This document shows positions 11,518 to 43,374 of a DNA stretch of 64,000 bases, one piece after another (within the stretch, counting starts at the first letter, position 1; each line of letters begins with the position of its first letter). Source of the DNA: Amphiscolops sp. MND2022. Lineage: Eukaryota. Made by a program: the position numbers and the translations under genes. The stretch covers positions 8,372,001-8,436,000 of the forward strand of contig OZ076409.1 of the NCBI GenBank assembly GCA_964187785.1. The letters are read 5' to 3'. Under the pieces are notes generated by a model that ran no database searches, was not told the DNA's origin, and worked only from the letters and a program-made list of their open reading frames with translations.

Positions 11518-11646
11518 AACAAGACGAGAACGTCTAAAGTCGGCGCTATATCTGAGGCTACAAAAGCGCAACGTTTTTAAAACATGCTCAGGACGTATGT
11601 ATGAAAGGCTCAGAAAACACTTTCGAGACACCCAAAGGGTGCATTT
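11518..11646 (-). mobile_element. HINE fragment interrupted by the 17-kb LTR element (continues ~28622-28735)
   Basis: Starts aacaagacgagaacgtctaaagtcggcgctatatc. Family-like sequence (aagtggaccgatcagtgtgagg...ggtcactgtaat) resumes after the 3' LTR. Confidence 0.6.
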
Positions 11647-11915
11647 TGTACTGACCTACATTAATAACCAATAGTATTTAGATGTTTATAGAATGTTCTA
11701 GAATGTACATTTATTTGTTATTGAATGATTGTAAATCTCTACTCCCTCAGAGAGAGAAAAATAATATTCAGTATTCAGTTGACTTCCTTTTTGTTCTACT
11801 TCTAACACCTCGAACTAGTTGTAATAAAGTAAGCTAGCTAGCTTGTCTCCCAGCCGCTTTTAGTAGTTGTGTATAAGAACAACCAAAGAAGTAACCAACC
11901 ATTAAAAGCAGCACA
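11647..11915 (+). repeat. 5' LTR of the giant element
   Basis: tgtactgacc...gcagcaca; 4 substitutions versus 28353-28621; contains AATAAA. Confidence 0.95.
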
Positions 11916-11918
11916 ATT

Positions 11919-11932
11919 TGGTGCGACTTGTA
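11919..11932 (+). promoter_or_regulatory. Putative primer-binding site (tRNA not assigned)
   Basis: TGGTGCGACTTG begins 3 nt after the LTR end; TGG is complementary to tRNA CCA. Confidence 0.6.
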
Positions 11933-13634
11933 AAATTTCTTGCCTTTTCTCCTGGATGATTTCTCTTCTCTCAACAATCATACAAATACCACTCTCTATA
12001 TTTGAAATTCTCTGGAATTGCAGTGAAATCTTTCTAGAATTCCTTGAAAGTTTAGTCTGTGACTTTCTGAATTCCATCAATAAATACATCATCGTTCGAA
12101 ACACAATTTCTCCACTACAAAAATCAATTTAAATATAACAAATTTTCTTCACTACCGGTTTATCACGTTTTCTAACGTTGACACGGTTCTTCTTCCTGTT
12201 TTTTTTGCCATACCGGTTTATCACGTTTTCCAATACGTTGAAACGGTTTCATTTCGGACTGATTTATCCAAAGTGACACAGTTCTGTTCTCTATACTGAT
12301 TTATCACAGCTAATCCGGAAGCTTGTTGAAACAGTTCTTTGACGTTTGTCTGGTTTATTAAGGTTTTCTAAAACCTTTGACACAGCAACTTTCTTCAATC
12401 CTGCTATCTTGAACGTCAGGTGGACTCCTGGTGTAATAGTTGATTGAGTGCATGTCCAACTCCGCTCACCTATAAGCACATACGTCTCAAGATCAACTTC
12501 GTGTTGGCAGAAAACCTGGATTTTCTAATTTTACGTTTCGGATCCACTTTCTACAAAATTTCCTACAAAAAAAATTCAGAAATAGACTCTGAAAACAAAA
12601 AAAGGCAACCAAACTAACTACAAAAAACAACCACGCACTATTCCATTTCTTTTCCTATTGTCGACAAACAATACAAATAAATTCACAAAACTTAAATAAT
12701 ACAAGTAACTTCAAAAAATTTCAATAACCAACAAAAATAACAACACAAAGTACACTCAACCTTATCTCTAGTACTTTCAATGGTAAAAATTTTAACATAA
12801 TCCTACAAAACAATTATTTTAACAAAATACCACATACAATTCTCACAACTCTTTTGCTTTAAAACTTAAAATAAGGCATGTAAATAACACAAACACAGTA
12901 AAGTTAGTTTTTTACTTTCAGGCACCCACAATTCCTATCCCCTCCCGTAAGACTTAGCCAATCAGACAGCCTCACCAGCTTACTCTGATTCTAAGACTGA
13001 CTAAAAACCTTAGTTAAGTGTAAACGTCTTTAAGGAGAATCGAGAGGACACCGAACTACGTTCGAATCTTCAAAATTCTCAGAAAGTAAAAGTAAAAGTA
13101 AAAGAAACAAAGATCAAACTTTGATCTTGATCAGTATTGATCAGACTTTGGATAGTGGACGTTGATTGTTCAGAGTTCCACTCCCTTAGTCTTAAAACAC
13201 ACAACCCACTTAAAATTAAAACAATCTTAGTTTTTCTGGACGTGTCAGTAACCTTATGTTAGACACCTTAAAGTGATCCAGACTTAAAATAACATTTAGT
13301 TTCTGTTAGCAATCCTTTGAGGTTGAATACAGATCCTACTGCATCCGCTTCTTTCTTCTCTATCCAAAACTATTAACTTCTCAAATAACATCAAATTACA
13401 ATACAAATTATAAGAACCCTAACATATACAACCAAGCAATTTATCCTTTCAACTTTTACATTTCGCCAATCAGCTCCCTTCAAAAACCTACAGCAAACGA
13501 TTTTGAAAGAATAATTGAACGATATCAACAATATTTTTTCTTTATCATAAATCAACAACGACATTACCCAAGAGCTCCAACTTAGAAAATTTCTATAAAA
13601 ATCAATTCGAACGTTCTCACCTTCACATTATAAC

Positions 13635-13748
13635 ATGTGGAAAAAAGTTGCCACAGTAGTACTCATTACAACATACACGTTTTGTGTCTTATTTATAGTT
13701 TGTGTTCTTCTTGAAAAAATACTTACGGTGATGAGAGACAAACTTTAG
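13635..13748 (+). CDS. 37-aa hydrophobic small ORF just upstream of gag (signal-peptide/TM-like)
   Basis: Hand translation MWKKVATVVLITTYTFCVLFIVCVLLEKILTVMRDKL*; stop lies 4 nt before the gag ATG. Confidence 0.45.
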   Translation: MWKKVATVVLITTYTFCVLFIVCVLLEKILTVMRDKL

Positions 13749-13752
13749 AAAA

Positions 13753-16700
13753 ATGTCCTTAACAAAAACCTATTTACCTTTTCAAACCCCCATCATTAAA
13801 AATGCAAAAGTTGTAAAATTAGAACTAAACCCATTCCTACAAAACATTATTTCACATTATACACAACCACTCCCATTTGAAAATGAACCACACACAATTG
13901 AAACAATCCCTCTTATTAGAGAACATTTGGACACATACCTTTTTTATATTAGATACAAAGTTTTAACAATCACCGAAGAATACCCAACTTTTCAAATCTC
14001 CTTTCTTCCACAAAAACTTAATTCATCTCATATATACAGAAGAACAATAAATCCAATAAACCTTCAAGTTCCTATTAAACAAGTTTTTCATGCTTTTCTA
14101 AACAATGTAAAAGACCACAACTTAGCACAGGAAATTCCAAAATTTAGTCCAAATGCACTCGACGATCTTCAACGATACATAGACAATTTCGACGTAGAAA
14201 TTATCGAAAGATTAGTTAATGCTGAAGATAATCCCCATCATTGGTTACAAGCTGATATATTACGAATTCAAAATTTCATCTACCATTACTTCAAAGACTT
14301 AACATTAAATGACCAAACAATTCCTCAGATCAAAGTAATATCTTTATTTCTCAGAAAATACTTCAGATTTAATTATCAACTATTATGGTCACAACAAGAT
14401 CAATCTGCTTTTACAGCATTTCCAGATCATTTTACATTAGAAGAATGTTTACCATTCATCATCAGTGAACAAAATGAACATCATTACTTTCATAAACCAC
14501 ATTCAATTACAAAACAAACCTTAGATTACATACGTTTCGATCCTCTATTAATTACAGAAAATGATCTATTCGCTGACAATAGACCTTACCACTATGAACA
14601 AAATTCTCAAAATCAACAAAATTGACATTTTAACACTAACAATTCTACTGAAGATGATAACACCGATCAGGAAAATACAACCCAACAACAAAATCAACCT
14701 GAAAACTATAACGATAATGAGTTTACTACCCAAGAATCTACAATTTCAACACATAATCCATCACAAACAGGGACATCAACATCAGTACATACTCAATCCT
14801 TTAGAGTTCCCACTAGAGTTGTAAACCAAAGACAAACTACACATAGTCCTCAATCTCACTTAGCTACATCTCCAAACCGTAATATAACTTTTAACCTTCC
14901 ACATACAGATGACACACACGATGAAACCCATGATACATTCCAGGATGATATTCTAACTACATCTAGTGTTCAGAATACTTCTGTTAATGTTGCATCTCCA
15001 ACAAGAACTAATCCTGATTATACAAGATACATTACTCGATCTAGATTTGATCCTCCATCAATTCCCTCCGCCTTTCGCTCAAACAGATCGACCTCTTCCA
15101 ACAACAATTTTAATGATAATCCCCAAACTTCCAACCGATATTACGATCCGTTTAATTATAACTTTTATCCTCCATCAAATACAACTACCAATACAAATAT
15201 CAACCAACATCACTCTCAAATTAATACAACTTCAACAACACAAAACCCCTTCATACAATTATCAAATACCAATACTTCACAGAATATATATTCTCGAAAT
15301 CAAGGAACCTCGTATCCTTCCACTTCTTATTCTAATATCACACAGGATTCTCAAAGGAGACTTCATAACCCTCCACTTACACATATACCAACTGATCCTC
15401 TGTATCAAATGCATCCAAATCCAACTCCTAACCCTAATTCAAATCCATTACCACAAAATACAATCCAACATATACCTCCACCACTCACACAACAATTAGC
15501 TCCTCCACCCCAATATTTACCAATGCCACAAGATACTTTTATAAACATGTCCGCTTCAATACCAGAACCTATGAAACCTTTTGATGGTTTGGACCATTCT
15601 TACACCCCCGAAGAATATCTACAACAAGTCGAAGCAAGATTAACCTTCGCCATAGGTGAAGAGCCTCAAAATAATCCTATAAAATACAAATCTTGGCACA
15701 ACAGACGCATGGCTTACATACAATGTTCATTAACAGGAACAGCTCTCGATTGGTACACTAACCTCCATATATCATATAAACAACAATGGAATTCTTTTGT
15801 ACAATTATTCAAAAAACAATTCTCATCTCAAAAAACTGCTTACTACGCTCAAGTAGAAGCTATGTCACTCATGAAAAAGGATAATGAAACAGTTCGCCAC
15901 TTCGCCCTTAGAGTACAACAAATAGTTAAAAAGGGATGGTGTAATGAAAATGCAGCTACCATAAATCTCAAAAATTATGAAATCTTTACAAAAGGGTTAC
16001 CAAAGAAGTTAAAAAATTTTGCCCATAAATGACAAGTTAAACATGTATCAACATTACTTGAACCTTCAATACCATTTCATACACTTTTTAGACTTGTCGA
16101 TTCTGAAGATATTGTTAATGAAAAAATTATAACTAACGACTTAGCTCTAGAAATAAACAAAGTATCGCTTGAAGATGATACTAACAAAAAAGAATTTGAA
16201 CATGAAGATCAGATAATGGTTACTCAATCTGGAGACCCAAATAACAAAAGCAAACCAGCGTATAGAAAATATTGTTTCTATTGTCACAAAAATAATCATA
16301 GTATTTCAAATTGTTATCAAGAACAACGTGATGACGAATACCAGAAATACAATAACCAAAGATCACGAACTCCTCAACAATCCTTTGTACAATATTTTCG
16401 CAGTAAACCTAATAATCCTCAAGAAAATCGAAATGACAATACAAATCCTTACTCCTCAGATAATGATCGTAATAAATATAATCAAAATTACTATAATGAT
16501 AGATACAGAAACAATGATAGATATCGTAGCAATAGTAGAGAATATTCGCAAAACAACTATAGATCAAACTCTCGACAAAGATATTATAATCGATCCCGAA
16601 GTCCGTATAGATCTCGATTTGATAATTATTATCAAAGAAGAACTCCATCTAGATCTCCATATAGATCTCCATACAGAAATAACTCAAAATACAGATATAA

Positions 16701-16926
16701 TTCTCGCTCAAGATACAGATCTCGTTCTCAATCACAAGGAAACTCCTTCAAACGATATAATTATCCACATAGATCTCCATCAAGACCTAGAGATTTTAGA
16801 TCAAGATCTAGAACACCCTCAAGAAACAGACAACAAAACAGAATAAATCAAGTAGACGTTAAATCTGCAAAAGAAAATGATTGTACAAAATTTGAAATTC
16901 ACACCTGTCAAATAACAAATAGCTAA
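13753..16926 (+). pseudogene. gag: Very long gag (~1,050 codons, internal stops at 14623 and 16030)
   Basis: ORFs 13753, 15409 and 16216 share one frame, and 14626-15408 is stop-free. Capsid-like MKPFDG...LTGTALDWY...F, CCHC knuckle CFYCHKNNHSISNC, RS-rich tail. Confidence 0.85.
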
Positions 16927-19900
16927 TACAATCACTCCTTATAGTTGGTTTTATCCACTATATATTCACGCTTCTGAAACAAATGATAACATATTACCTT
17001 CAAAATAGGAAATCTTATTCCTCTTAGATACTGGAGCATCCATATCTGTTTTGAATTTACCAACATTTCATGTAATTTCCAAACAATTAAACATCAATGT
17101 TCCAACTAACCTCCAAAACAAAAGAGCCAAAACTCTTACAGTTGCAAACCAAACTGAAGTACCAATAATACATTATATTTCGATGACCTGTTTCACTGAA
17201 GTAAATCACAAAACACGATCATTCAATATCGATTTTGACGTTGCAAATATCAAATACAACATTCTTGGAACACCCTTTTTCAAAAAGCACATCCAAAATA
17301 TTGCTTTTCAACAAAATATTATGACATACATAGAACAACATCCAAAGCTTCCAACAAAAACAACATTTTCCACCTTTACAGAAAAAGATTACCCATATAC
17401 TTCTTACATTTATACTATTAAATGTAAGGAACCAATTCACTTTAAACCAAGGTCAGGAAAAACCATAGATTTCCCAATTAAAAACTATTTAAATTTACAT
17501 TTTGAACTTGAAGATAATACAAAATTCTATCCAACAAACCCATATACATATTTCTTACAAAAATTCAAAAATATCTTTCATTTCTTAGATATGATAGTCA
17601 ATGAAAAAAGCAAAGACTCATGTGCAACCATAATTCAAAACTTTACATCTTACCTAGCTACATTACCACGAGGAATTATTGGATATATAGAAATACCTAT
17701 TACTCAAACAACTCCTCCTCACTACAGAGTTAACGATGTAAATTCACTTTTTTCACTCTGTAATACATGCGTATCACCCTGATACCACAACTCCGATTCA
17801 ACAAAATTCTTATGTAGATATGAACTTATGTACTAGGGTAACACCACAATCCCTATTAGAAATTAACAAGATAGAAATCAACGACAAAACACTTCAACTT
17901 CCTATACCTTCTGTTACTGGAAACCTTCGACCCTGAGATAAAATTCGAAAAGATTTCCCTCCATTACCCTATTCTACAGAAAATCAACAATTCAAAAAAA
18001 AGTTCAATTTTGAATACTCAGATTTAACCGATACAGAAAATGTAAACCTCTGCAATATTCTGATTAATAACCAAAATTGTTACGCCAAACATAAGAACGA
18101 CGTAGGAAAGATTTCTACTCCCTTTCGAATTAGAATAAAAGATAATTGTAAACTTCACACACAAAGACCTTCTAAAGTACCTATTCACTATAGAGATAGA
18201 CTAAATAAACTTTTATTAGAACTTGAAAAATACAACATCATAAAACAAATTGGTTCAACAACAGATGAAAAACATACTATTGGAACAACATTTTTCAACC
18301 CTTTAATTATTATCCCAAAAGGAGACGCAATAAAAGTTGTCTTAGACGCAAGACATCTAAACTCAAACACTAACCAAGAACTTGAATCTTGGCCTATTGA
18401 ACCTTTAGCTCCTCAATTAGCTAGAGCCAATAAAAAATACAAATCAACTACTGATCTAATGTATGCATATGCTCATACACCATTAGACGAAGAAACAATT
18501 AAACTTACAGGATTTTCATCCGGTGACAAATTATACGCCTTTATCCGTGGATCTTATGGATTAAAAGGACTTCCAAACTTTTTTTACAAAACAAATGTCA
18601 ACTTTCTTTAGATCGCTTATAGACAAACGTTCTGCGTTAGTTTATATCGATGATATTTTATTACTCGCAAACGAAAAACAAGAAATATTTGAACTTATAA
18701 AAGAATTACATACAATAGCATCTCGAGAAAATCTCAAACCTGCACCTGAAAAATCATTCTACATGTTACTCAAAGTAAAATTCCTTGGACATGAAATTGG
18801 TAACAACACAATTAAACCAATTCCATCCAAAATTGAAGCTATTAAAAGAATTCCATCACCAAAAGAAAAGAAAGATGTTATGCAAATTCTTGGCCGTGTT
18901 AACTTTTATTCAAAATTTATTGAAAAGCTTCATATAAACCTTAAACCATTGTATACATTACTACATGATGATGTTAAATTTCAATGGACACCTGAATTAG
19001 AAAAAATATTTCAAAATGTTAAAAATACAATGACAGCAAACACTGAATTAACAATACCCAACACCACGCATCCATTTTTCATAACAGTAGATGCTTCGTT
19101 AGTAGGTTTAGGCGCAGTCTTATTCCAAATGAACAAAGAAAACAAGATGAAAGTAATCTCTTATAACTCCAGAATTCTTAACACACAAGAACAAAAACTT
19201 TCAACTTTAGATAGAGAACTTCTTGCAATAGTTTACGCACTGCAAATATATGAATTTTTGATCATTGGATCTCCTCATCCTGTATACCTCTTCACAGATC
19301 ACAAGCCTTTACTACATTGTTTCGCAAAGAAAGGAAATCTTAGTCCTAGATTCTATAGAGCACAAATGCAACTAACCAAATTCTCCAAACTAAAAATCAT
19401 TCATACCCCTGGAAAAAATTTAACTGTAGCAGATACGCTTTCACGAACCTTTACAAAAGAACAGTTACAAGTACACCAATTACGACACAAACAATTACCA
19501 CCTCAAATAGATTTCTCTATCATGAAAGATAATCAACTCAAACCAGTACATTATTTAGTAAAACATGAAGAAATAAAATATAATCAAAAGAATGATTGTC
19601 ATCCTATCCTTGCTGACTACAGAGACGACCAATTCTCTATCCGTATAAATAACAAAGGAGAAGAAATACACATAAAGCCTTTAGATTCCTTCTCTTTTCA
19701 ATCTATTGTTCCAATCGAATCAAAATATAAAAAGCCTACAAAAAACCAAGCAAAATCTCTTTTACAACAATCGACAATTCTTAATGATACTGACATTCTT
19801 AGTGATGAAGATGAAATAACTCAATCAAATAATATCCAACAACAAAACTCAGACATAGTAAAAGAACACACCCTTGCTATACAATATCCTACCAAATCCG

Positions 19901-21798
19901 ACTATTGTAAACAACAAGTTCCATTTTTTGATCCATCCTTTTTCAAATACAAAAAATATTTTAATTACTTCTTCCTACCAGAAGGTACACAAATAACCAT
20001 TGAAACAATAAAAGCTCAACAAAACCAAGATACTGTTTTACAAAACGTTTACCAATGGATACTTAATAATGAAAGACCCTTACAAATAGACAAATAGACC
20101 CAACAATTGCAGCTAACTCTTTCTTATTATTATATTACAAAATCTTCAACCAGTTATATATTAATCATGATACAAAAATTATCTACATAGATTATCCTAA
20201 TCTTCACGATTCCAACCCGAATCAAAGTGACAAAATATGTCTACCAATTAAACTTTTCCACGCAGCTTTTAACAAATTTCATGCTCATGGACATTCAGAA
20301 ATAAAAATATCCATCAAAGCTTTCAACCAATTTTACTTCATACCGTACTTGAATAAATGGATGTCAATATTCATCCATGATTGCATTGAATGCCAACAAA
20401 ATAAACATATTAACCAAAAATTACAAACTGCATCTGTACAAACCTTCTCAGAAAATGCTTCATATTTTAATTACCGAATATCAATGGATACAAAAGGACC
20501 TATAAACCCACCATCAAATCAAAATTCATACATTCATGTTATAGTAGACGCTTTTAGTCACTTTGTAGTAACAGTACCTATAAAACAAAAGAATGCTCAA
20601 ATTGCTGTTAACTCATTACTACATCATTGGATAACAAAATTTGGACCTCCTGTATATCTAGTTACCGACTGTGGAACAGAATACATTAATTCAGAATTTG
20701 CAAATCTTTGTACCACAATGGGAATTAGACTTTCAACAAGAACTCCTTATGCACCATGGACAAATGGTTTAGTTGAAAATCAAAACAGAAATCTTGGAAC
20801 TCATCTCAGACTTTTCTTACATATCACTCCAGAAAAATTGGTCAACTCAAGTTCATATGTATGCTTATGCACATAATTCACAACCACTTTCTGAAGTAAA
20901 CTTATCTCCATATGAAATAGTATTCCATACTATACCCAGAATTCCAATCAACTTTGAACTCAATCTCCAAAGAAATACATATAGAAATTGTACTTCTCAA
21001 TATTGTCAAGAATTACCACTTCATACACACTATGACAAATCAAATCTAAACCCTTTCTTTCATACAATTTTATCTAAACCAATTCCACAATGGATCTTAA
21101 CTACTGAAACTGCTATGATACAGATATACCATACGGTATATGAAAACACAAAAAGAAAGATTAATTCCTATGCTTATTTTAACAAAACATATCACAATCC
21201 AAGACCCTTAGATATTGGTACATTTGTACTAAAAAGAAATTTTCTCCATGTTCATTTTTCCGATAAATTAAAACCTCTCAGAATTGGCCCATTCAAAATT
21301 ATTAACAAAATCTCCGACATAACATATGAAATTGTTAATCAAGATGGTTATACATCGCACATACATAGAAATCATTTAATTCCTTATCATCCAAAAGAAC
21401 CAGTTATTTTTCCTTTCCTACAACAATATAATCCTCATTTATTTAATGACTGTCATTCAAATATAAACGATCAAATAATTAACTCTGATGAAGACAAATT
21501 TACTGACGAAGAACAATTTCCTTCCACAACATCTAATAAAGAAACGGATATACCATTCACGATTGACTTACAACCAGAATCATTTAGCCAATATTCTTCA
21601 TTTCCATATAAACAAAAAGAACAAATTTCTCAAAATACCTACCTGGATAACCAATCAGATATTCATGACTATGTTAATTTTATTAATCCCCGAAGACACT
21701 CCTATAATAGATACAATTTCCGCCCACAACCAAGAAAAGACTACCGACTTTTCCTTGGTGAAAACGATATAATTTCACTTTCTCAAAAAACCTGCTGA
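16922..21798 (+). pseudogene. pol: pol: protease, RT, RNase H, integrase (several frameshifts and stops)
   Basis: LLDTGAS (DTG 17027-17035); YIDD 18643-18654; RNase H TVDAS / ELLA / TDHKPL; integrase H..GH...CIEC, MDTKGP, VTD, GLVE; GPF motif. Confidence 0.95.
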
Positions 21799-22186
21799 AA
21801 TACGGAATACAGAAAAAAGCACATAAAGAAAATTTGAAAGAAAAGCAAAAGTTTGAAGCTTACTGTGAAACTGAACAAAAAATATTTCACAAGTGATAAT
21901 AAACGAAAGAAATCGATATGAAACTATATATATTTTATAAATTGAAACAAACTACCTTAACACAAAGATTTCAAAATTGATAGACATATTCACTTGCCAT
22001 CATCAACCACAAATAACTCTTCTTCTAGTTCAACACATTCACACCAAAGATTACCTAAATATACAGCATATTTAAACTCAGATACAGACATACTGGATTC
22101 CTAATCCTCAAATCCCAGTCCATCCGCTCCATATACTCCTGATAGAGTACCAACAACACCCACCAATTCTGAAAATCATATTTCAG

Positions 22187-24417
22187 ACCAAGATCCTAAC
22201 ATTTTAAACTTGATGGTATCTCATTATGATTGTGCAAAACAAAACAACTTAGAACCATGTAAACAAGCACCCTCAGATATACAACACACAAAAACCCAAG
22301 CAACAGTTTATGTTAGAGCAAAAGCTAAAAGAATAAAAGCCTTTAAATGCGAAGCATATATAAAGACTGAGAAAGTCTGGTGTTCACAAACATTCACATC
22401 TAGTAGACGATATGATCGTTTACAATGGGGACAAAACACATTAGAACTTCCAAAAATATTGGACCCTATTGAATGCAAAAATATGATCAGATATTTAAAC
22501 GCGACTGATAGTGAAGAACTAAACAACTACAAAATACAAAGTTCTTTCTCATTGTTCGACGATAGTAATTATCAAAACACAATTGAACGAATTCAGACAC
22601 CATTTAGAGTAAAAAAATTAAATACATGGCATATTGGAACCTTCGTATTTGATGAAAATTATCCTGACTGGATAGTTAATGTTACACAAAATACATACTC
22701 CAGATGTCGATCAGACCGAGAACATTTAATTACCCGACAAAGTTGGAAACTTAGAATTGTTAACACCGCAATAGATTATGACGATAAAAACAATCAATTA
22801 ATACATGACGGACACATATTACCATGTTATCATTCAGACGGATTTTGTAAATCAACGACCAAAACTCCATATACATTAACATGGTTTGATGAAAAATTTT
22901 GCCTCATATTTCAACTTCAAGAATTCATTGGTAGAATGACACGAATCAAAGATAGATATTGGATAGAAACCGATACCTTCATTGAAACTTCAAACATCAC
23001 ATAAAAACTTCAAACCGAAGGAATACAAGGAACAAGATATCCTAATGTAAAAACACCACAATCAAAAGTAAGCAATCCAAGCCTTTCTCGATTTGAAATA
23101 TACCCAATTGCACAAACCTTCTGTGGAAAACCTGAACCATTATTTTCAACACAATACGATGACATCTTTGTTACATACTTAGATGGTTTTGATATGAACA
23201 CAGGATTACCAAAACCACACTCAATAATTGACCAAACAATTAGTGGAAATATAAAATATGATGATTCAAACAAAAGGTATATATTCCCTGCATTGAATAT
23301 ATCAAACAATTTCGCCACTTTAGATTATGATGCCCATATTAATACAAAGATTGATTTCACAATAAATCATGTATTTAAATCCATGACAGTACAAGAACTA
23401 AACACTCTTCATACAATATGTGAACTGGAAAGAACTCAACTATTAACGATCTTAGCTATGTCAGTTAAAAATCCTCAATTAGCCGGTTTTCTTTTAACTG
23501 GAAATCGTAGTAACTTTCTCTAAGTTGAAGGATCTACAGCATGGCTGTATGATTGCCCTCATTTTATATCACCACTATACAAGGCAGACAAATGCTTTGA
23601 TAGAATTCCTATACACTACAGAGAAACGATAATGTATGTTGACCCAATAACAAGACAAACTTTTAACTATGCAACACCAATTGAATGTGGAAATAACCCA
23701 CAAAATGTAATAGAATTAGATCCAGATTCTAACGACGGAGATTTTTATGTGTTAACACCAGAACCACTTCAACGAGAAGCACCACAAATGTTTGAACCTA
23801 CCCAAATTAAAACAACAATCACTCCTAATACATTTACCGCCCAAGATGCCGGTATATACTCAAATGCAGAATTAGATCAATTCTGGAATAGAGTACTATT
23901 TGCTAAACATTCTGACACAACTCTCCAATTACTTGGAAAATCATTAAGCTATGATTTCATCTCAATGCATAATGATAAACACTCATACTCAGGACATAAT
24001 CCCTATAATCATTTAAGGATTGGAGTACATGACCACTTGTTAAACCTTTTACCACTTTTTAACCCTGACTGGTTCAGTCAAGCATTCATTAATTTCTTTA
24101 GATATCCATGTTATGTTTTAACTCAATGTGGAATTTATTTTTCAACATTTCTTTTCATTAGAGAAGTTTTAACATTTTTACTCAAATTCTACAGAACAAT
24201 TAGCATAAAATATAATCTCCAAAGCAACATTTCCATTTTGAGTTCAATAGCTCATGGATTTTTTAATATAGTTACATCGGAAATGGTAACTGATTTAAAC
24301 AATACAGTAAAACGAAAACGGATATATACTAAACACAAAATTACAACAAGTGAAAATGATAATATCCTATTGCCGGAAAAAGAATTAAACAATAAACGAA
24401 GACACTCTGATACTTAG
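22187..24417 (+). pseudogene. env: env-like glycoprotein, class III fusion protein-like (chuvirus G / herpes gB type); in-frame stops at 23002 and 23521
   Basis: ORFs 22210, 23194 and 23632 share one frame. Motifs HYDC..PC..FKC..WC..IEC, then CELERTQL...NPQLAG...WLYDC...KCFDRIPI...YVDPITR...IEC. N-glycosylation sequons; C-terminal TM segment CGIYFSTFLFIREVLTFLL. Confidence 0.8.
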
Positions 24418-24931
24418 TCCCCTTATTTACCTCCTAAATATTCCAGTAAGAATTCAACATTTCAATCACCGCAAAAGACACACCCAACTAATGTAAACGA
24501 TATTAATTCTCAGGACTATGACCCAATAATGTCAAATGTAATAGCTGTACCGGAAAGTCCTGCTAAAGTCTTTATAAAATTCAATCCCTCCTAGCTGAAA
24601 AGCAATAACTTAAAAAACAAATTAACCTCAGAAAAAGTTCAAAAAATTATCAACTAAATTCTTCTCAGTAATAACTTTCATTCAAACCCTAATTCTCACT
24701 CGGACCGGTCTCTCCTTTTCAACTCAACAACAAATTCACTTGCCCACCACAACTCAACTCTCAACCAGAAGACTTCAACTGGATTTTCAGTCCATCTAAA
24801 AGACCGAAATCACAGAAGTTTCTATTCCTGGAATAGATGCCACTGTGATTGTTGATGTTTTCAACCCATCATTGACTCAGTATTCCCATATTGTAAGTAC
24901 AATTTAAACTTTAATTTTAACAAACAATTTA

Positions 24932-26290
24932 ATGGATAGAAAAGACATAACAAAATTTTTCCTTATTATTCGAAATAATATAATCAAACGTTATAATCAT
25001 TATTTTATCGTTATAATTGATGTAGTTAACTCTAATCCCTCTGAATTGCTTGCATCCCCTTTGAATATAACTATTCAAAAAAATGTTAACGAAGATAATA
25101 ACTCTTCTTCCAACTCTCAAGACCCCATAGCAACTAATCCTATTGAACAAGTAGATCATGTTAACGCAAGATCTCAAAAAAGAAAGTACCCAGATATAAC
25201 TGCAGATAAACCTTTTATGGAATCTGGCGCTTGCCCTCCTTTCATAAAACCAATTAAACAAGATGAAGATAGAGATTGTGAATTAGTTCCTATTCTCTCG
25301 TCAAAACACTTCACCTTTCAATCTCAGTTAACTTCGTTATACATGATTCCAACAAAATATAAATTCATCATCAGAGAATTTAAAAATGATTATCATACAT
25401 CAATTGCTTCAAAATTGATTACCCCATATGATTGGTGGTTAAACAATAAAGTGAAAACTTTCTCATTCCAATACAACTTCCTCAGACCATCTCCATATGA
25501 TCTTCGAACCAAAGAAAATGATGCAAATTTTTTGCCATACCAAATCAAAAAGGCTCACCACATGACTTATCAAAAGTTTCTTCAATATAAAGAGCCCGAT
25601 AATTATATATTCTTCATCTCCAAATATACATCGCCATTCACTTTCAACTCAGAATGTTTAATAGATCATACCAAAACAAAAGGAAAACTTAGAAATTATG
25701 ACCCGCTGAAACAAAGTTTTCTCTTCCTTCCAAAAGATAACCCAAAAAGACCAATCATTGTACCACAAGAATACCTCATTCTGAACGACGATTCGTTACT
25801 ACAAGAAGATATACCTCAACATATATCTGATCCTCTTCCTTCACTTCAACATATAGCCTCTCAACCTTTGGGAGACTGTGAAAAATCTTATTTTCACGCA
25901 ATGACCAAAAAGGGATATTCGAATAATGAATTAATTTTCATTATTTCTCATCTGCTTTCACTTCTTACAAATGGAAATCACAAAGAATATAAAAAGGCAA
26001 AACAAGAATCGCCTAAGAAAACCAAAAATGATATTCCTCAACCACAAAGTTTTCGCCCAACAGATGAATTACAGAAATATACAGAAATCCTGAATATCAT
26101 AAAACCGTACCATCATCCGAACCGAGATATTCTTATAACAATCGCTGAAATCGTAAATACCCTTGAACAAGCTCGAAGCATAATACAAAATATCGTATTT
26201 GATACGACAAGAATTAGCCAATCAGCTTTGTGCATTCGCACATCTTTAGACGAATTCAACTACACTATTGAAAAAATGCATCGATCTTAA
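24932..26290 (+). CDS. Uninterrupted 452-aa accessory ORF of unknown function
   Basis: ATG-initiated, stop-free, same strand and A/C-rich codon bias as gag/pol; no motif recognised. Confidence 0.7.
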   Translation: MDRKDITKFFLIIRNNIIKRYNHYFIVIIDVVNSNPSELLASPLNITIQKNVNEDNNSSSNSQDPIATNPIEQVDHVNARSQKRKYPDITADKPFMESGACPPFIKPIKQDEDRDCELVPILSSKHFTFQSQLTSLYMIPTKYKFIIREFKNDYHTSIASKLITPYDWWLNNKVKTFSFQYNFLRPSPYDLRTKENDANFLPYQIKKAHHMTYQKFLQYKEPDNYIFFISKYTSPFTFNSECLIDHTKTKGKLRNYDPLKQSFLFLPKDNPKRPIIVPQEYLILNDDSLLQEDIPQHISDPLPSLQHIASQPLGDCEKSYFHAMTKKGYSNNELIFIISHLLSLLTNGNHKEYKKAKQESPKKTKNDIPQPQSFRPTDELQKYTEILNIIKPYHHPNRDILITIAEIVNTLEQARSIIQNIVFDTTRISQSALCIRTSLDEFNYTIEKMHRS

Positions 26291-26635
26291 TTGGTAATTA
26301 TGGGATAATCACTTTAAAATTGTTTACACTTATTTCTTAATCTCTTAACAACCTATCAAAATTAATTGAGTCTATACGTATATGCCTGCTATGCACGATT
26401 ATAATACATGCTTGATGTTAAAATACACTTTTAAAATAAAATAACACAAAAAATTTCAATCACGACATAAAAATTTTCAACAAAATTCCTCAATTGCTCC
26501 TCCTTTTAATGGACCGATTTCAACAAATAAGTACTTATATGAAAGATATTTAAATACCCTTCAAAAGACTTCCAAAATACAACAACCTAATTCTTAAAAT
26601 TAAAAAGTTATAATATCACAAAGTTCAATAAAAAA

Positions 26636-27289
26636 ATGTCAACTACGAAATTCTATTTTCAAAGGAACTTTATTGTAAACAAACTAATCTATTTTAGGTG
26701 AATATCGTCACAATTGCTTCTGCAGCATTCCTTCCTCCTCTCAGGTCACCCATTCAAGAAGAATTCCAAAGTATCTTCTACAACTTTCAACGAAATTTTC
26801 CCATTCTTCAATATGACAACTATTCATTCTGGCGACATAGACTGCCCGATAGCTCCTTTTCTTTCAATCTCTTCAGCTCGATTGCGATCTTTGATCCTGA
26901 AAAAGCATTTAACGACATTAAATGCGCAGCTTAGAACAGACAAAAAGGCAGACCCACATCTTACAAGGATGATATTGCTTAATATGTTCCAAATATTCCA
27001 AATAACAAGAATAAATTTCGACCAATATCTCCATATTCATAAACCTCCTGACACTTATTCAACCCAACGAGACGCCACTACCCAAACAGAACATACTACC
27101 GTCAAGCCCAAACGTTTAGTACGAAATCTATCCAATAGAATGCGTTCTGAAATGGAAAAACAACGTCTAAATTCTTATTGGCCTTCAGATGATAACGATG
27201 ATACTGACGAAGAACTTCAAAAAGACCCTCCAGAAGCACTTATAGATGATAATTACCCGCACAAAACATATACTTACGTTTCTTTCTAA
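26636..27289 (+). pseudogene. Second accessory ORF (~217 codons, one internal TGA at 26699)
   Basis: ATG 26636 is in frame with ORF 26714..27289; acidic C-terminus. Confidence 0.5.
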
Positions 27290-27840
27290 TATCAACAGAC
27301 GCCATCAACAGCACCCGTCCACTCCCATCTTCGAATCCCACATCTTCAACGATTGATCGTCGCAGATCAGCACCCATCTTCAACTTCATCGCCGCCCAAC
27401 AGTGCCCATCTTCATTCATTTGCTGACCCTTCTTCATCCATCTTCCAATCTTCAATCGTCACCCATCCAATTCTCAGCCGAAGATGATCGATAATTAATA
27501 ATAAAGAAAACTCAAAGAAAAACATTGTGCATGATAACATTTCGAAAAGTTTCAAACTCATCTAATATTTAGAGAATTCAAAACTCTTACCGAAAATATA
27601 CACTATGTAGTTAATATTTCAAATTTCATCCCCACCCACATTTATTTGCCCAAAAATCCTTTATTCACACCCGTACCGATATTTATTTGCTTTATTTTTA
27701 AAGAATATTTAGTAATAATTATTATTTTTCGGTGCTATCCTATCCAAAAAATTCACAAATATTATCAACAAATCTTTCCAAATTTCAACAAAACCAGCTC
27801 AAAAGTAGATCAAGCACATTGTTCAAATCAAATTCGAATA

Positions 27841-28140
27841 ATGACAAACCCAAATTCTCGACGTTTTCAACATTTGTTACATAACAAACCCGCCAAAGTT
27901 AATCACAACCTGAAATCTTTTCAGACAAATTTCACGCTCGATGGAAAAATTTTCTCTTCTCAACGATATTATTTCAATGACTCTTTGACCTTTAACTCGT
28001 ATGATGTTTGCTCACGTTTGTTCAATGCGAAGTTTTTTCAAAAACTTCAACAGAAGCATAAAATTGAGCATCTACCAGTTCAAAAACAAGCCGACGAAAG
28101 CATAGTGAAAAAGAACACTTTGACGCTTTTTGAACTGTAG
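27841..28140 (+). CDS. Third small accessory ORF (~99 aa)
   Basis: First ATG in ORF 27646..28140 (MTNPNSRRFQ...), shortly before the 3' LTR. Confidence 0.35.
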   Translation: MTNPNSRRFQHLLHNKPAKVNHNLKSFQTNFTLDGKIFSSQRYYFNDSLTFNSYDVCSRLFNAKFFQKLQQKHKIEHLPVQKQADESIVKKNTLTLFEL

Positions 28141-28352
28141 TCGCACCTACGAGGTGTCAATCAAAATTTTGACAATTCGAGGTACACCAATGAGTCGAAC
28201 TTACACCACTCTTAACGAGACTTATGCCAATCATCCATCTAATGAAAAATGTTAACTAGCTGAAACGCTAAGAACATTTAAACAAAAATATTTCTTCATT
28301 TCAATTAATGATGCTACTTTAAAATTTTATTTTATTTAAAAACCGGGATGGA

Positions 28353-28621
28353 TGTACTGACCTACATTAATAACCAATAGTATTTAGATGTTTATTGAAT
28401 GTTCTAGAATGTACATTTATTTGTTATTGAATGATTGTAAATCTCTACTCCCTCAGAGAGAGAAAAATAATAATCAGTATTCAGTTGACTTCCTTTTTGT
28501 TCTACTTCTAACACCTCGAACTAGTTGTAATAAAGTAAGCTAGCTAGCCTGTCTCCCAGCCGCTTTTAGTAGTTGTGTATAAGACCAACCAAAGAAGTAA
28601 CCAACCATTAAAAGCAGCACA
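28353..28621 (+). repeat. 3' LTR of the giant element
   Basis: Direct repeat of 11647-11915, preceded by an imperfect purine tract aaaaaccgggatgga. Confidence 0.95.
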
Positions 28622-29243
28622 CTTTCATGCTCGATGAGACTACTGGCGTTAGTGATTTCAGGAGTTTCTCTGAAAAGTGGACCGATCAGTGTGAGGTCTT
28701 TGTCTCGAGAAAAAAAGGTCACTGTAATAAGCATCCTGTATTCTCGGCTCTGTGAGGTCTTCTAACTGCGTCATTTTAATGGCTTTTTATCTTTAGCATC
28801 TTTATATGCCTCTGCAGTAGTCTTGATAGATATATACAAAATTTGATCTCACAACGACTATATGAAAACCTGGCCATTACGTTCGTCCTCAACGATTTCG
28901 TATGTGTCTGTTTTCATTTTTCCTATGTTCATTGCGCGTTTTGAATGCTCTACAAATCATCAAAGTTTCGATCACAGAATTTTTGGCCAACCTATTGATC
29001 TTGCTTTGAAAAAAAATGATGTTTCATGAATAATTTCCTGTCAAAGTCGAAGGTCCTTGAGTTGTCGGAAAAAGTTAGTTGCGCCTATGAGTGCCTATGA
29101 TTTCAGGGAAAAATGCCCGACTACAGCAGTGACCTTTTTTTCTTGTTTTTCTTCAGACTACAATCCTCACACTGATCGGTCCACTTTTTAGAAACAATCC
29201 TGAAACAACCTAAGGCCAAGAAAAACTTAGTCCAAAGGGGCCC

Positions 29244-37237: not shown

Positions 37238-37754
37238 TGTTGGCGCATGACATCACAATGATCGCGCAGTAATTATTAATCCACTTAGCACAGTGTATCA
37301 GTCTTTGCTTTTGAACTGGCCTGCGCGAGTTCGAATCTGCGCCAGTGCTCTTTTTTGTTCCTTTAATCCTCTGACTTAATATTGGCCTCAATATCGATCA
37401 ATCATTTTGGTTGACATTATTAATCTTGCTCATGTTATGTATTATATTAACAACCCATTGCTCACTATTGTAAACGCATATGTAAACAACCCGTTATGGA
37501 TCTTTTTGTTGCCTTGAACTGTAAGTGTGCCATTATTTATTCAACAACCTGTTATTGACCTGTCATCTAACTCTCACTTCTTGAGATCAATTTCATTCAT
37601 TCATACTATCAATAAACATTCTCAAACATAGATCTCTTGTCTTGAGTCAAGACCCAAATCACAACAGTTTGAACTCTATCTTTGAGTTCCTTCAATCCTT
37701 TTAGTTTGAACTCTTTCTTGAGTTCCCTCGTTCTAGCTTGAGAGCTAGAAAACA
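37238..37754 (+). repeat. BEL 5' LTR
   Basis: tgttggcgc...aaaaca; about 3 substitutions plus a short terminal difference versus the 3' LTR. Confidence 0.9.
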
Positions 37755-37755
37755 T

Positions 37756-37773
37756 TGCTGACCTCGACGTGAT
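37756..37773 (+). promoter_or_regulatory. PBS, tRNA-Trp type
   Basis: tgctgacctcgacgtgat matches TGGTGACCCCGACGTGAT (complement of the metazoan tRNA-Trp 3' end, from memory) at 16/18. Confidence 0.75.
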
Positions 37774-42823: not shown

Positions 42824-43374
42824 GTAGCAGCATGAATGACAATGAAACTGCGTGCTGTGGCTTAGTGGCAAACGTTAAAGCAACAGTTAGACCATTAGAT
42901 AACCGTCAGGTCGGATGTTCGAGCCCTGCTCACGCCCACACTCCTACCTCACCTCTGGTGAGTAGGTTCCCAATGTCCTATGGGAACTTTGCTCAGATCT
43001 GGATTCCTTCCTCACGGGGGGGATGAAGGGGGGGGCGAGGGAGGAGGTTTAGTGTGTAAAGAGAAGAATAAAAGAAGCCAGCCACTATTTCCAAATTTTT
43101 CTGCAGCTGCACACACCCAACTCAATTACTCGAAGTATACCCAATCCCTTTATGGACGATGATGGTGCAGTGGTGATTTCAATATTCCCTCATCAGAAGT
43201 TCTGGAGTTCGAATCCCCGAAACACAAAGTTTATTTTGTCTTCCTTAAACTCAAACTCATGACATTTACTATTTGTATTATTATCGAGTGGTAGCTATTC
43301 ATATTCTTTTAAATTGTATTAGCACGAGTGCTAATCATATATTAAATGAAGCTGATACTTCATGGCCGGCGGGA

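Follow-up and report, generated by a model that had tools for sequence, protein, structure and literature searches.

Introduction

Within a window of 64,000 nucleotides from Amphiscolops sp. MND2022 (contig OZ076409.1 of assembly GCA_964187785.1) two near-identical long terminal repeats enclose gag, pol and env genes and a series of further open reading frames. What kind of element is this, and are the additional frames genes which belong to it? We are highly confident that positions 11647-28621 (16,975 bp) are a dead, internally deleted copy of an endogenous retrovirus-like Ty3/gypsy (Metaviridae) element of about 18.4 kb. The same high confidence covers, jointly with this identity, the plan of the family: 5' LTR; primer binding site (PBS); an AUG-poor leader of 1.84 kb which contains a 58-codon uORF; a gag-pro-pol frame of about 8 kb; ORFx; env; ORFy; possibly ORFz; polypurine tract (PPT); 3' LTR.

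Structure of the Window Copy

The features are collected in Table 1. An earlier note, made from the letters of the window, had described short LTRs differing at 4 of 269 sites, and this is borne out; the differences are at LTR positions 44, 121, 197, and 233. The resulting divergence of 1.5% supports the claim that the insertion is fairly recent. For the PBS candidate a primer tRNA was searched for and not found.

Table 1. Features of the element in the window (positions of the window).
Feature	Position	Strand	Evidence and remarks
5' TSD ATTT	11643..11646	+	partner CTTT at 28622-28625, 1 mismatch
5' LTR	11647..11915	+	269 bp, TG..CA, AATAAA at 11823; paired with 28353-28621
AUG-poor leader	11916..13752	+	1.84 kb, LTR end to gag ATG (13753); ATG count
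PBS candidate TGGTGCGACTTG	11919..11930	+	3 nt past LTR; same letters in 8/10 other copies
Hydrophobic 58-codon uORF (predicted)	11956..12132	+	first AUG of genomic RNA; open in 10/11 copies
gag (broken)	13753..16926	+	Retrotrans_gag 15718-15933, CCHC knuckle 16273-16314
Protease region	17009..17782	+	DTG 17027-17035; out of frame with gag in window copy
Reverse transcriptase and RNase H	17937..20097	+	YIDD 18643-18654; spread over two frames
Integrase	20073..21798	+	H2C2 zinc domain, rve core, Tf2-1-like SH3 / GPY-F region; spread over two frames; pol stop TGA at 21796
ORFx remnant and deletion junction	22105..22167	+	about 1.38 kb missing here, kept in 10/10 other copies
env remnant	22160..24417	+	N-terminus and start codon lost; Pfam Monjiviricetes_fusion at 23527-23949
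ORFy, conserved orphan accessory gene	24932..26290	+	452 codons from ATG; 42% aa identity to sister family, E 1.6e-86
ORFz, weakly supported gene	26702..27289	+	195 codons stop-to-stop, ATG 26813; 195-196-codon frame in window and 6/10 other copies
Last ORF, probably not a gene	27538..28140	+	200 codons; open at least 150 codons only in window and 1/10 other copies
PPT candidate AAAAACCGGGATGGA	28338..28352	+	purine-rich, adjoins 3' LTR; identical in 6/10 other copies, remaining 4 with single substitutions or alignment offset
3' LTR	28353..28621	+	269 bp, TG..CA; paired with 11647-11915
3' TSD CTTT	28622..28625	+	4 bp, 1 mismatch vs ATTT

The interior is composed of 38.8% A, 29.1% T, 21.2% C, and 10.9% G. 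The gag, protease, reverse transcriptase/RNase H, integrase and env regions all are on the plus strand, as are three more frames after env. Because all long frames share one strand and the interior is so strongly skewed, this set of frames is not due to chance. The assignment of gag, pol and env in the earlier note stands in so far as all three are present, gypsy-type and with a viral-type env; this copy, however, is dead. The gag frame is interrupted by two in-frame TGA codons (14623 and 16030), gag-pol is broken into 8 stop-to-stop pieces, and env carries in-frame TAA codons at 23002 and 23521. The deletion, with an 8-nt overlap at its junction (22160-22167), has taken most of ORFx and the start of env. 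For this reason env has no N-terminus here, and ORFx escaped the earlier note.

Copies in the Genome and a Sister Family

With the LTR as a query, 40 of 2,066 first-look candidates were scored, and all 40 are 97-100% identical. Of these matches 26 make 13 pairs, eight of them spaced by 18.10-18.17 kb. The element is much larger than usual, as had been claimed. It is present at many copies in the 1.07-Gb genome.

All ten full-length copies which were fetched are colinear with the window copy, with 95-98% identity over the whole interior and an identical gene order. Of the 11 copies examined, the window copy counted in, 9 are flanked by perfect 4-bp target site duplications (TSDs); these are insertions of the integrase type. 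LTR divergence within the family (K2P) is 0-0.023, and all 11 copies examined are broken. A sister family exists in the same genome (stretch L051), with 40% protein identity in ORFx (E 3.9e-54), 61% in env and 42% in ORFy, in the same order. Among its scored matches ORFx is open in 100/100, ORFy in 93/94, and env in 49/50, counts which are biased towards intact copies because they were taken from the best-scoring matches. The sister-family copies are largely intact, and ORFx, env and ORFy are conserved there.

These comparisons bear on the 21.8-28.3 kb region, which in the window copy alone could have arisen by nested insertion or by capture of host DNA, the element otherwise being an ordinary gypsy. 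The unusual size and the lack of Pfam domains in ORFy, ORFz and the last ORF would fit such an origin. Yet the region is colinear in 10/10 other copies, the sister family has the same order at 40-61% protein identity, and strand composition is uniform over the interior, in which neither an LTR nor a TSD was detected; the probability of this explanation is negligible. As a one-off insertion, the doubt attached to the original claim, the region is refuted by the ten colinear copies and the sister family.

Might a host deaminase have caused the stops, and a sense strand so poor in G and rich in A, through G-to-A hypermutation while the element was reverse-transcribed? The low G content points in this direction, as do the many frame breaks in spite of near-identical LTRs, e.g., one copy has no LTR mismatch and 148 private substitutions. 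But the 1,944 private substitutions in 11 copies are nearly strand-symmetric (per site G>A 0.096 vs C>T 0.079; A>G 0.037 vs T>C 0.049). Further, the window stop at 14623 is a Leu in another copy, and no single G-to-A change gives TGA from it. Finally, the intact sister family is just as G-poor (10.5%), from which it follows that the base bias is a trait of the lineage compatible with function. Hypermutation is very unlikely to account for these observations.

Leader, Gag and Pol

The leader of about 1.8 kb and its small, TM-like ORF were recognized correctly at the outset. The leader-equivalent bins of one full-length copy hold 7 ATG where about 22 are expected; the uORF has no match in Pfam. 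Gag consists of an N-terminal domain without known family, a long N/T/S/P/Q-rich region, the Retrotrans_gag domain, a CCHC knuckle, and an R/S/Y-rich tail. Another copy has an uninterrupted gag frame of 1,306 codons which runs on through the protease into the reverse transcriptase. Judged from the open stretches of 1,306 and 864 codons, which overlap across copies, gag-pro-pol is one continuous frame of about 8 kb in the family.

The order is PR-RT-RH-IN, with Pfam matches to Retrotrans_gag, RVT_1, RT_RNaseH, Integrase_H2C2, rve, and SH3_Tf2-1. The likeness to complex vertebrate retroviruses, which had been emphasized earlier, holds for the layout only; its pol has Ty3, and no retrovirus, as the nearest relative. 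A placement in the Retroviridae or in a sister group of retroviruses, as a lokiretrovirus-like element or a foamy-like complex retrovirus, could appeal to this layout with genes 3' of env, and to lokiretroviruses, for which a gB-like Env has been reported. It is highly improbable, nevertheless: among PDB matches of an open pol stretch from another copy Ty3 (5.2e-45) is far ahead of cauliflower mosaic virus (9e-26), foamy virus (5e-17), and MLV (2e-12), the Tf2-1-type SH3 / Integrase_p58_C region is typical of gypsy integrases, and Gag matches Retrotrans_gag.

ORFx and the AUG Desert

ORFx is 418-489 codons long across both families, 484-489 in 3/10 copies of the window's family and 418 in 99/100 scored copies of the sister family. 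It is rich in Ser, Thr, and Pro (36-39% together) and largely of low complexity. Met is absent from all 488 and 417 codons, respectively, of the two frames compared; the Met content of the element's remaining proteins is 1.0-2.2%. No relative was found in Pfam or the Atlas.

Is ORFx a protein-coding gene at all? The pol-env spacer could be a long AUG-free leader of the env mRNA, its open frame a by-product of composition. The absence of Met and of any ATG-initiated frame, the biased composition, the lack of relatives, and a pN/pS of 0.62, the weakest constraint among the conserved genes, all are in line with this. Against it, at this composition the stop probability is about 7% per codon, and a frame of such length is not expected by chance; it is open in two families with 40-44% protein identity while synonymous sites are saturated, and in every scored sister-family copy. 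Between families, pN is 0.43 for ORFx and 0.41 for ORFy, well under the saturated pS of 0.70-0.74. We thus consider a non-coding ORFx unlikely.

Even less probable is that ORFx extends a neighbor, either as a tail added to Pol by read-through or frameshift, or as the N-terminal part of Env. In favor are the lack of an own start codon, the frame shared with pol in 2/10 fetched copies, and an overlap of 10-55 nt between the 3' end of ORFx and the start of env. However, in both families the pol stop and the first ORFx codon are 100-165 nt apart, and this gap holds two or more stops in the frames concerned; as a part of Env some 400 disordered residues would precede the signal segment, and env has its own AUG in the context ttaaccATGA in 7/7 located copies.

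The 1.3-1.5 kb 5' of the env AUG are almost without AUG. In the sister family the pol stop and the env AUG are separated by 1,302 nt with 4 ATG, which open 4, 2, 1, and 2 codons; none of 2,000 shuffles was as low, and control windows had 15-32 ATG. In the window's family shared ATGs are located only at -1162 and -1159 from the env AUG, and in 3/7 copies none is nearer. Dinucleotide shuffles reached the observed paucity in 1-7 of 1,000. It is due in part to the Ser/Thr/Pro-rich codon composition: when codon order was shuffled, 19-89 of 5,000 were as low in the window's family. With codon usage thus held fixed the depletion in the sister family is weak (451/5,000).

Env and the Downstream Frames

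An 840-aa open stretch of env from another copy matches PF24664 (Monjiviricetes_fusion) at 8.7e-23 (80.6 bits; cutoff 27). Features of Env are a hydrophobic N-terminal segment, a single C-terminal TM, 16 Cys, and 12 sequons; an R-x-K/R-R motif is absent from the protein sequence. The AlphaFold model is poor (mean pLDDT 39.4), and searches of the PDB gave no sequence or profile match. Glycoproteins of this type are described as Chuviridae-like with a gB-like fold (PMC13524379).

Of the three accessory ORFs proposed earlier, ORFy is clearly a conserved gene, ORFz has a positional counterpart only, and the third is probably not a gene. ORFy (about 430-450 aa in the family) has 277 relatives, with neither Pfam nor names among the 120 listed, and 629 clusters. 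Searches gave no relative outside its own lineage and no known family; its predicted fold is poor (pLDDT 35.8). The counterpart of ORFz in the sister family has 179 codons with 23.5% identity (blastp E 0.038).

Relation to Known Elements

The Errantivirus elements of Drosophila (gypsy, ZAM, Idefix, 17.6) share with this family the LTR-bounded gag-pol-env arrangement, the 4-bp TSD, and an env which in Drosophila is expressed from a subgenomic RNA. Their env is of the baculovirus F-type, unlike the env here. They are about 7-7.5 kb long with three ORFs, gag and pol being separate but overlapping, and none is known to have an ORFx or ORFy.

The lineage had been thought possibly undescribed. What appear to be new are its size, the additional genes, and the AUG desert, whereas Ty3/gypsy elements with env are already published, 114 of them with a Chuviridae-like, gB-like glycoprotein (eLife 2026, PMC13524379). 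Shared with these are a Ty3/gypsy pol, an env 3' of pol, a glycoprotein of the mononegavirus/chuvirus type (here PF24664), many near-identical copies, and LTRs with a PBS. Among the approximately 70 supplement rows listed they measure about 7-12 kb from LTR to LTR, compared to about 18.4 kb here. Distinct from what is described for them are a conserved AUG-less ORF of 1.25-1.47 kb between pol and env, a conserved ORF of about 1.3 kb after env, and the single gag-pro-pol frame. The survey limited regions to 10 kb and the pol-env gap to 0.5-1 kb and left out other arrangements. The PBS and tRNA end of our family is absent from its 1,512-row table; under another description the family may still be part of that set.

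Mosquito BEL/Pao elements likewise are LTR retroelements which use a captured Chuviridae glycoprotein as env (Dezordi et al., 2020, PMC7642597; cited in PMC13524379 and PMC10084718). Their backbone is BEL/Pao instead of Ty3/gypsy, and extra conserved genes are not reported in the parts of these sources considered here. Oversized or ORF-capturing LTR elements are known as well: planarian Burro (>30 kb), plant Ogre/Retand, bdelloid rotifer elements with extra ORFs, and fish foamy-like ERVs of up to 17 kb (Rodriguez et al., 2017; Arkhipova and Yushenova, 2019, PMC6431247). The env region of Burro, too, matches mononegavirus fusion glycoproteins. It is positioned in-frame between gag and pol in a polyprotein of about 4,900 aa with many host-derived domains, whereas ORFx and ORFy have no recognizable domain; gene order and size differ (Rodriguez et al., 2017; PMC6431247).

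Cer1 of C. elegans is likewise a Ty3/gypsy element in which gag and pol form one long polyprotein, and downstream of pol it has a lineage-specific ORF which is not expressible alone (Sun et al., 2023, PMC10309623). This ORF is the C-terminal half of CERV, made from a spliced mRNA with its first exons in the gag frame and required for nuclear export of genomic RNA. Unlike our family Cer1 is without env, and in our family splicing is hypothetical. No search detected sequence similarity between Cer1 and ORFx or ORFy. CERV is the best functional model for ORFx.

Rice tungro bacilliform virus (RTBV) and badnaviruses (Caulimoviridae) are reverse-transcribing, too, and have a long leader with short uORFs; in RTBV as in our family, an upstream ORF that lacks an AUG start precedes a stretch of about 0.9-1.5 kb which is free of internal AUGs and ends at the AUG of the next gene (Pooggin and Ryabova, 2018, PMC5902531). 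In this plant pararetrovirus scanning on the pregenomic RNA is proven experimentally, whereas for our family it is suggested by sequence statistics.

Proposed Expression and Biological Role

The AUG-poor stretch upstream of env suggests leaky scanning. To reach the env AUG, ribosomes on a subgenomic RNA would scan 1.2-1.5 kb across its ORFx region, and this would be the reason why the region is almost AUG-free with only tiny uORFs. We put this forward tentatively, at slightly less than an even chance. ORFx could obtain its start from an AUG spliced in from an upstream exon, as in CERV of Cer1, or from a non-AUG codon, as in ORF I of RTBV.

Taken together, the identity of the element, the gene plan of its family, and the expression model constitute an explanation which we regard as probable as a whole. 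The element would replicate via tRNA-primed reverse transcription. ORFx and ORFy are putative accessory or regulatory proteins, and Env, as a fusion glycoprotein of the Monjiviricetes-virus type, would let particles pass between cells.

The insertion in the window and its family

A direct-repeat search returned one long pair (11647-11924 and 28353-28630, 97%), which alignment and direct reading resolve into LTRs of 269 bp each at 11647-11915 and 28353-28621. They have TG..CA ends and differ at four sites, LTR positions 44, 121, 197 and 233. The flanking 4-mers are ATTT (5') and CTTT (3'). The PBS candidate TGGTGCGACTTG begins three bases past the 5' LTR, and AAAAACCGGGATGGA directly precedes the 3' LTR. 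All interior ORFs of at least 110 codons are on the plus strand except for one 117-codon minus-strand frame within ORFy, the first frame 3' of env. The earlier note had described an LTR pair, gag, pol, env and further same-strand ORFs at 11647-28621, and all of these are present. The interior consists of 38.8% A, 29.1% T, 21.2% C and 10.9% G with a GC skew of about -0.3, and the base skew starts and stops at the LTRs. Six candidate splice donors (GT[AG]AG) are found in the element; their conservation is uninformative because the copies of the family are about 97% identical. The 64-kb window has no Rfam match and no tRNA gene.

Coding features of the window copy (positions in the window)
Feature	Position	Strand	Remarks
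gag frame	13735-16926	+	ATG at 13753; stop-to-stop frames and Pfam
Retrotrans_gag	15718-15933	+	Pfam
CCHC knuckle	16273-16314	+	within gag
in-frame TGA stops in gag	14623, 16030	+	
protease	17009-17782	+	DTG at 17027
RT/RNase H, two frames	17937-20097	+	YIDD at 18643
integrase, two frames	20073-21798	+	stop-to-stop frames and Pfam
env frame	22105-24417	+	in-frame TAA at 23002 and 23521
post-env ORF	24908-26290	+	stop-to-stop frame
post-env ORF	26702-27289	+	stop-to-stop frame
post-env ORF	27538-28140	+	stop-to-stop frame

The window copy is a dead, ordinary insertion because gag, pol and env contain in-frame stops and split frames. Its relatives are numerous. In the host assembly of 1.07 Gb the LTR query had 2,066 first-look candidates; 40 matches were scored, each with 97-100% identity. 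Twenty-six of these 40 make up 13 pairs. Spacings below 18 kb are 16,706 (window), 17,127, 17,472, 17,711 and 17,914; the remaining ones are eight at 18,104-18,169 and one at 23,404. The typical element of this family, termed family A, is therefore about 18.4 kb long. Ten of the 12 other LTR pairs were compared, each as two separate halves and with the 17,472 and 23,404 pairs excluded. Throughout the interior, all ten align colinearly to the window copy with 95-98% identity. This includes the 21.8-28.3 kb region, for which a one-off insertion had been considered in the earlier note and is now refuted. Perfect 4-bp target site duplications (TSDs) flank nine of 11 copies, with a single mismatch in the window copy and one other. 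The K2P distance between the LTRs of a copy ranges from 0 to 0.023.

All ten copies contain a segment of about 1.38 kb which is missing from the window copy at 22160-22167. The deletion took most of ORFx, an additional frame between pol and env, and the start of env. This is why env appeared to follow pol directly in the earlier note.

The other ten copies are also broken, at differing places, and the gene plan was read from overlapping open stretches of individual copies and not from a consensus. Gag, protease and RT form one frame, open for 1,306 codons in one copy; RT and integrase form one frame of 864 codons in another, which extends past the junction of the two halves as far as the pol stop. 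Gag, protease and pol consequently share one continuous frame of about 8.0 kb (8,046 nt from the window ATG at 13753 to the pol stop at 21798). About 165 nt past this stop ORFx begins; it is open for 484-489 codons in three of ten copies and divided in two in the rest. Its end overlaps the start of env by 10-20 nt, and the longest open env stretch has 840 codons. ORFy has 431 codons in two copies and 439 in a third, and ORFz, the next frame, 195-196 codons in the window copy and six of the ten others. The last window ORF (27538-28140) is open for at least 150 codons in only one other copy and is not counted as a gene.

The C-terminus of gag (16500-16926), 3' of the CCHC knuckle and 5' of the protease, is a long R/S/Y-rich tail resembling an SR domain. 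It is overlapped by an alternative +1 frame within gag (16217-16846, 205-212 codons), open in 11 of 11 copies, often in copies in which the main frames are broken. Codon composition alone may account for this openness.

Other repeats are found in the window. Just upstream of the element, at 9000-9872, are repeats of 147 and 91 nt in three copies each. A BEL/Pao LTR element (37238-43674) has 300-bp LTRs which are 100% identical, encodes DUF1759, Peptidase_A17, Integrase_H2C2, rve and DUF5641, and looks like a very young insertion. A decayed gypsy-type element (44048-50037) has an LTR pair of 222 bp with 95% identity, an A-rich strand (AT skew about 0.3) and an RT_RNaseH fragment at 46821-47459. 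A further retroelement (60122-64000) runs past the window end; its 713-codon open frame encodes an aspartyl protease, a dUTPase between PR and RT (PF00692, 23.0 bits, cutoff 22) and RVT_1.

A Ty3/gypsy backbone

The domain order of pol is PR-RT-RNase H-IN, with DTG, YIDD, RT_RNaseH, Integrase_H2C2 and rve in succession. In Pfam the 864-aa open stretch matches RVT_1, RT_RNaseH, Integrase_H2C2 and rve, and the integrase C-terminus SH3_Tf2-1 and Integrase_p58_C. Among PDB sequences Ty3 is the best match of pol (5.2e-45 and 2e-37), ahead of CaMV (9e-26), foamy virus (5e-17) and MLV (about 1e-12 to 2e-12). Of 244 pol relatives none carries a name among the 120 listed. TG..CA termini and 4-bp TSDs agree with Ty3/gypsy elements, which have TSDs of 4-6 bp. 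Judging from the search scores and domains of pol, the backbone of the family is Ty3/gypsy (Metaviridae).

A pol and gag of the Retroviridae type were rejected, as pol is nearest to Ty3 and the family gag matches Retrotrans_gag. The likeness to complex retroviruses drawn in the earlier note is confined to the layout. Members of the ICTV genus Errantivirus, gypsy-like viruses of insects, have a three-ORF genome of about 7-8 kb and an env homologous to the class I fusion protein of the baculovirus F/paramyxovirus type. On both counts an errantivirus was rejected: the family measures about 18.4 kb and has no fewer than five ORFs that are conserved, and the only Pfam match of its env is PF24664, with no R-x-K/R-R cleavage motif. 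Troyka elements have CG..CG termini and 3-bp TSDs (PMC12440569) and were dismissed on account of the TG..CA termini and 4-bp TSDs of the family. Of two pattern searches of the genome for a primer tRNA fitting the PBS, one gave 0 matches and the other 5, versus 19 for the reversed control; the PBS end of the family is absent from the PBS table of PMC13524379.

The envelope gene

Env is located downstream of a Ty3/gypsy pol on the same strand and in multiple copies, as in env-carrying Ty3/gypsy elements. The 840-aa stretch matches PF24664 (Monjiviricetes_fusion) with 80.6 bits against a cutoff of 27; in the window copy the match covers the last third of env (1.4e-12). Monjiviricetes includes Jingchuvirales. 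By this profile match env is assigned to the chuvirus/mononegavirus glycoprotein family. The env reported in the earlier note is a real viral-type one.

Two relatives from a large protein collection, 60% and 53% identical to the env of family A, are encoded in the genome itself, each in many near-identical copies. For the first, identity is 98-99% in each of the 50 scored matches, of which 49 are stop-free; for the second, 31 of 50 are stop-free. In the first sister Env, of 900 residues, a hydrophobic segment lies at the N-terminus and a single TM near residue 715; there are 16 Cys and 12 N-x-S/T sequons, and the R-x-K/R-R motif is absent. This set of features fits a fusion protein that stays uncleaved, as opposed to one of class I. 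An AlphaFold2 model from a 17-sequence alignment has a mean pLDDT of 39.4; at this low confidence the predicted β-rich N-terminal half and long central helix (444-501) are compatible with a gB-like (class III) fold. Glycoproteins of this type have been described as gB-like (PMC13524379).

A single env sequence had no PDB match at E≤1, and the env profile retrieved from the PDB CD48 alone (E 0.11). The viral contigs of IMG/VR contain no relatives of the profile. The large protein collection holds 74 env relatives in all, none of them named, which are 30-97% identical.

Conserved genes beyond gag, pol and env

The comparison is based on one diverged family (the first sister), of which the 3' half is represented by a single 9.6-kb stretch, L051. 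L051 keeps the gene order: pol C-terminus (51% aa identity to family A), ORFx, env (61%), ORFy and an ORF at the ORFz position. Its ORFx homologue has 418 codons and 40% identity over 388 aa (E 3.9e-54), its ORFy homologue 449 codons and 42% identity (E 1.6e-86). The 179-codon ORF at the ORFz position is 23.5% identical with a blastp E of 0.038. Between family A and L051 pS is saturated (0.70-0.74, Nei-Gojobori) and pN rises from env (0.27) and pol (0.30) to ORFy (0.41), ORFx (0.43) and ORFz (0.55). An open ORFx is seen in all 100 sister-family matches scored, an open ORFy in 93 of 94; these counts derive from the best-scoring matches and are hence biased to intact copies.

Kept in the sister family and open in its copies, ORFx and ORFy are thus conserved, recently intact genes. 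The status of ORFz as a gene is doubtful by the same comparison. Of the three ORFs which the earlier note had placed 3' of env, all are present on the plus strand; ORFy stands as conserved, and the other two do not share this standing.

That the accessory ORFs are diverged copies of gag, pol or env was rejected, since no similarity was observed below E 0.1. The three post-env ORFs of the window have no Pfam match, and at E≤1 ORFx, the relatives of ORFy, ORFz and a 58-codon leader uORF gave only sub-threshold noise in Pfam. ORFy has 277 relatives, none with a name or Pfam domain among the 120 listed, and 629 clusters, mostly fragments, in a representative library. PDB, Atlas and IMG/VR yielded no ORFy relative, with nothing below E 0.7 in the PDB profile search. 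Its AlphaFold2 model (29 sequences) has a pLDDT of 35.8, with long C-terminal helices at moderate confidence. ORFx consists of 36-39% Ser, Thr and Pro; against the protein Atlas its best match, at 0.76 (SPT21), is unusable, and neither Pfam nor the Atlas yielded a relative.

An AUG desert ahead of env

ORFx contains no Met in 488 and 417 codons in the two families, and this absence is in itself unusual; the other proteins of the element have 1.0-2.2% Met. In all three frames the ORFx region has 2-4 ATG versus 11-13 expected from base composition, and at most two of 500 shuffles are as low. ATG is above expectation in the sister-family env (60 vs 33) and in ORFy of both families (21-23 vs 13-16).

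In family A the env AUG (ttaaccATGA) was located in seven of ten copies. Within 1.5 kb upstream the only shared ATGs are at -1162 and -1159, open for 16 and 15 codons; three of the seven copies have no nearer ATG at all and four have one private ATG. In the sister family the pol stop and the env AUG are 1,302 nt apart, with four ATGs between them, which open 4, 2, 1 and 2 codons; none of 2,000 shuffles has so few uORF codons. Equally long control windows from other parts of L051, 21 in number, have 15-32 ATGs each.

Could composition explain this paucity? Dinucleotide-preserving shuffles are as low in 1-7 of 1,000. When amino acids and codon usage are kept and only the codon order is shuffled, counts as low are reached in 19-89 of 5,000 for family A and in 451 of 5,000 for the sister family. 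Because such low counts are reached at these rates, the Ser/Thr/Pro-rich composition accounts for part of the paucity, not for all of it. In the sequence statistics of two families an AUG-less ORF coincides with a nearly AUG-free stretch ending at the env AUG, as in the arrangement of leaky scanning in RTBV.

The 1.84-kb leader ahead of gag is also ATG-poor (7 vs about 22 expected). A hydrophobic uORF of 58 codons, open in ten of 11 copies, starts at the first AUG of this leader. The earlier note had seen a 1.8-kb leader and a small TM-like ORF.

Proposed expression of ORFx and env

As read from the frames, ORFx is unreachable from pol by frameshifting, because stops in the relevant frames separate the two by 100-165 nt in both families. 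The simplest reading would be a subgenomic RNA which has the ORFx region as its 5' part. ORFx might then start at a codon other than AUG, or at an AUG which splicing brings in from an exon further upstream, and ribosomes which do not initiate there would scan onward to the env AUG.

For each half of the model there is a precedent among reverse-transcribing elements. In Cer1 the post-pol ORF is the C-terminal half of CERV, which is translated from a five-exon mRNA with the first exons in the gag frame and is needed for export of the genomic RNA (PMC10309623). In RTBV ORFs I-III are expressed by leaky scanning over about 900 nt without internal AUGs, and ORF I starts at AUU (PMC5902531).

The boldest reading would be one of very recently active, possibly still active, "complex" endogenous retroviruses on a Ty3/gypsy backbone in this animal. 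From one subgenomic RNA, long-range leaky scanning over an AUG desert of 1.2-1.5 kb would yield two products: ORFx, an AUG-less regulatory protein and perhaps a factor for RNA export or expression akin to CERV or Rev, and a fusion glycoprotein captured from an RNA virus. ORFy would be a further new accessory gene, e.g., a host-defence antagonist. As a whole we offer this reading tentatively and consider it less probable than not. If it is true, a leaky-scanning strategy so far documented for plant pararetroviruses would be at work here.

Composition and decay

With 10.9% in the window copy and 10.5% in L051, which is intact, the sense strand is extremely poor in G; C amounts to 21-25%. The intact sister family shows the same shortage, so it is a trait of the lineage. 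G-to-A hypermutation by a deaminase was rejected because the private substitutions, 1,944 singletons in 11 copies, are close to strand-symmetric: per site G>A is 0.096 vs 0.079 for C>T, and A>G 0.037 vs 0.049 for T>C. The pattern fits ordinary decay after insertion. Sites at which at least two copies have the minor base show C/T 55 times vs A/G 21 times on the sense strand, small and unpolarised numbers; a trace of strand-biased mutation during replication is possible. One copy, on contig C4, has no LTR mismatch along with 148 private substitutions, an internal deletion of about 1 kb and many frame breaks. This hints at defective genomes mobilised in trans, or at homogenised LTRs.

Relation to known elements and implications

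Env-carrying Ty3/gypsy elements with an F-type or gB-type env have been reported across metazoans by Chary and Hayashi (eLife 2026; PMC13524379). Among them, 114 gypsy elements carry the Chuviridae-like glycoprotein that had initially been noted in BEL/Pao elements of mosquitoes. In Hymenoptera and Coleoptera gypsy fragments were noted beside such glycoproteins, with no clear capture (PMC10084718). Oversized elements are known as well: Burro, Ogre and 17-kb foamy-like ERVs of fish (PMC6431247). The elements of PMC13524379 measure about 7-12 kb from LTR to LTR in some 70 supplementary rows, whereas family A has about 18.4 kb. The pipeline used there may have missed this architecture, because candidate regions were limited to 10 kb and the pol-env gap to 0.5-1 kb.

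In the literature, with Repbase, Dfam and the GitHub sequences of PMC13524379 lying outside the comparison, we found no env-bearing gypsy of about 18 kb with ORFx and ORFy. Nor did we find there a post-pol ORF that lacks an AUG and precedes env, or an AUG desert put to such use. The earlier proposal of an undescribed lineage is therefore tenable for this gene set and too broad for the env, since env-bearing gypsy elements with this env type are published (PMC13524379). The kind is known; this lineage is oversized, has at least two extra conserved genes and bears a sequence signature of long-range scanning.

Env-bearing gypsy elements have been treated as three-gene elements of less than about 10 kb, and published search filters would tend to exclude larger ones. 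Annotators may split such elements into a "gypsy" element plus either ORFs without explanation or "endogenous chuvirus glycoproteins". The present family suggests that a Ty3/gypsy backbone can accommodate about 18 kb, with two or more conserved genes in addition. The lineage has been amplified to many copies with open envelope and accessory genes, and the radiation which contains family A looks recently active in this genome. The AUG-less ORF and the AUG desert up to the env start offer a concrete and cheaply testable hypothesis for the expression of several genes from one RNA. Should ORFx and ORFy act as regulators or as antagonists of the host, they would constitute an invertebrate counterpart, independently evolved, of the accessory complexity of vertebrate retroviruses.
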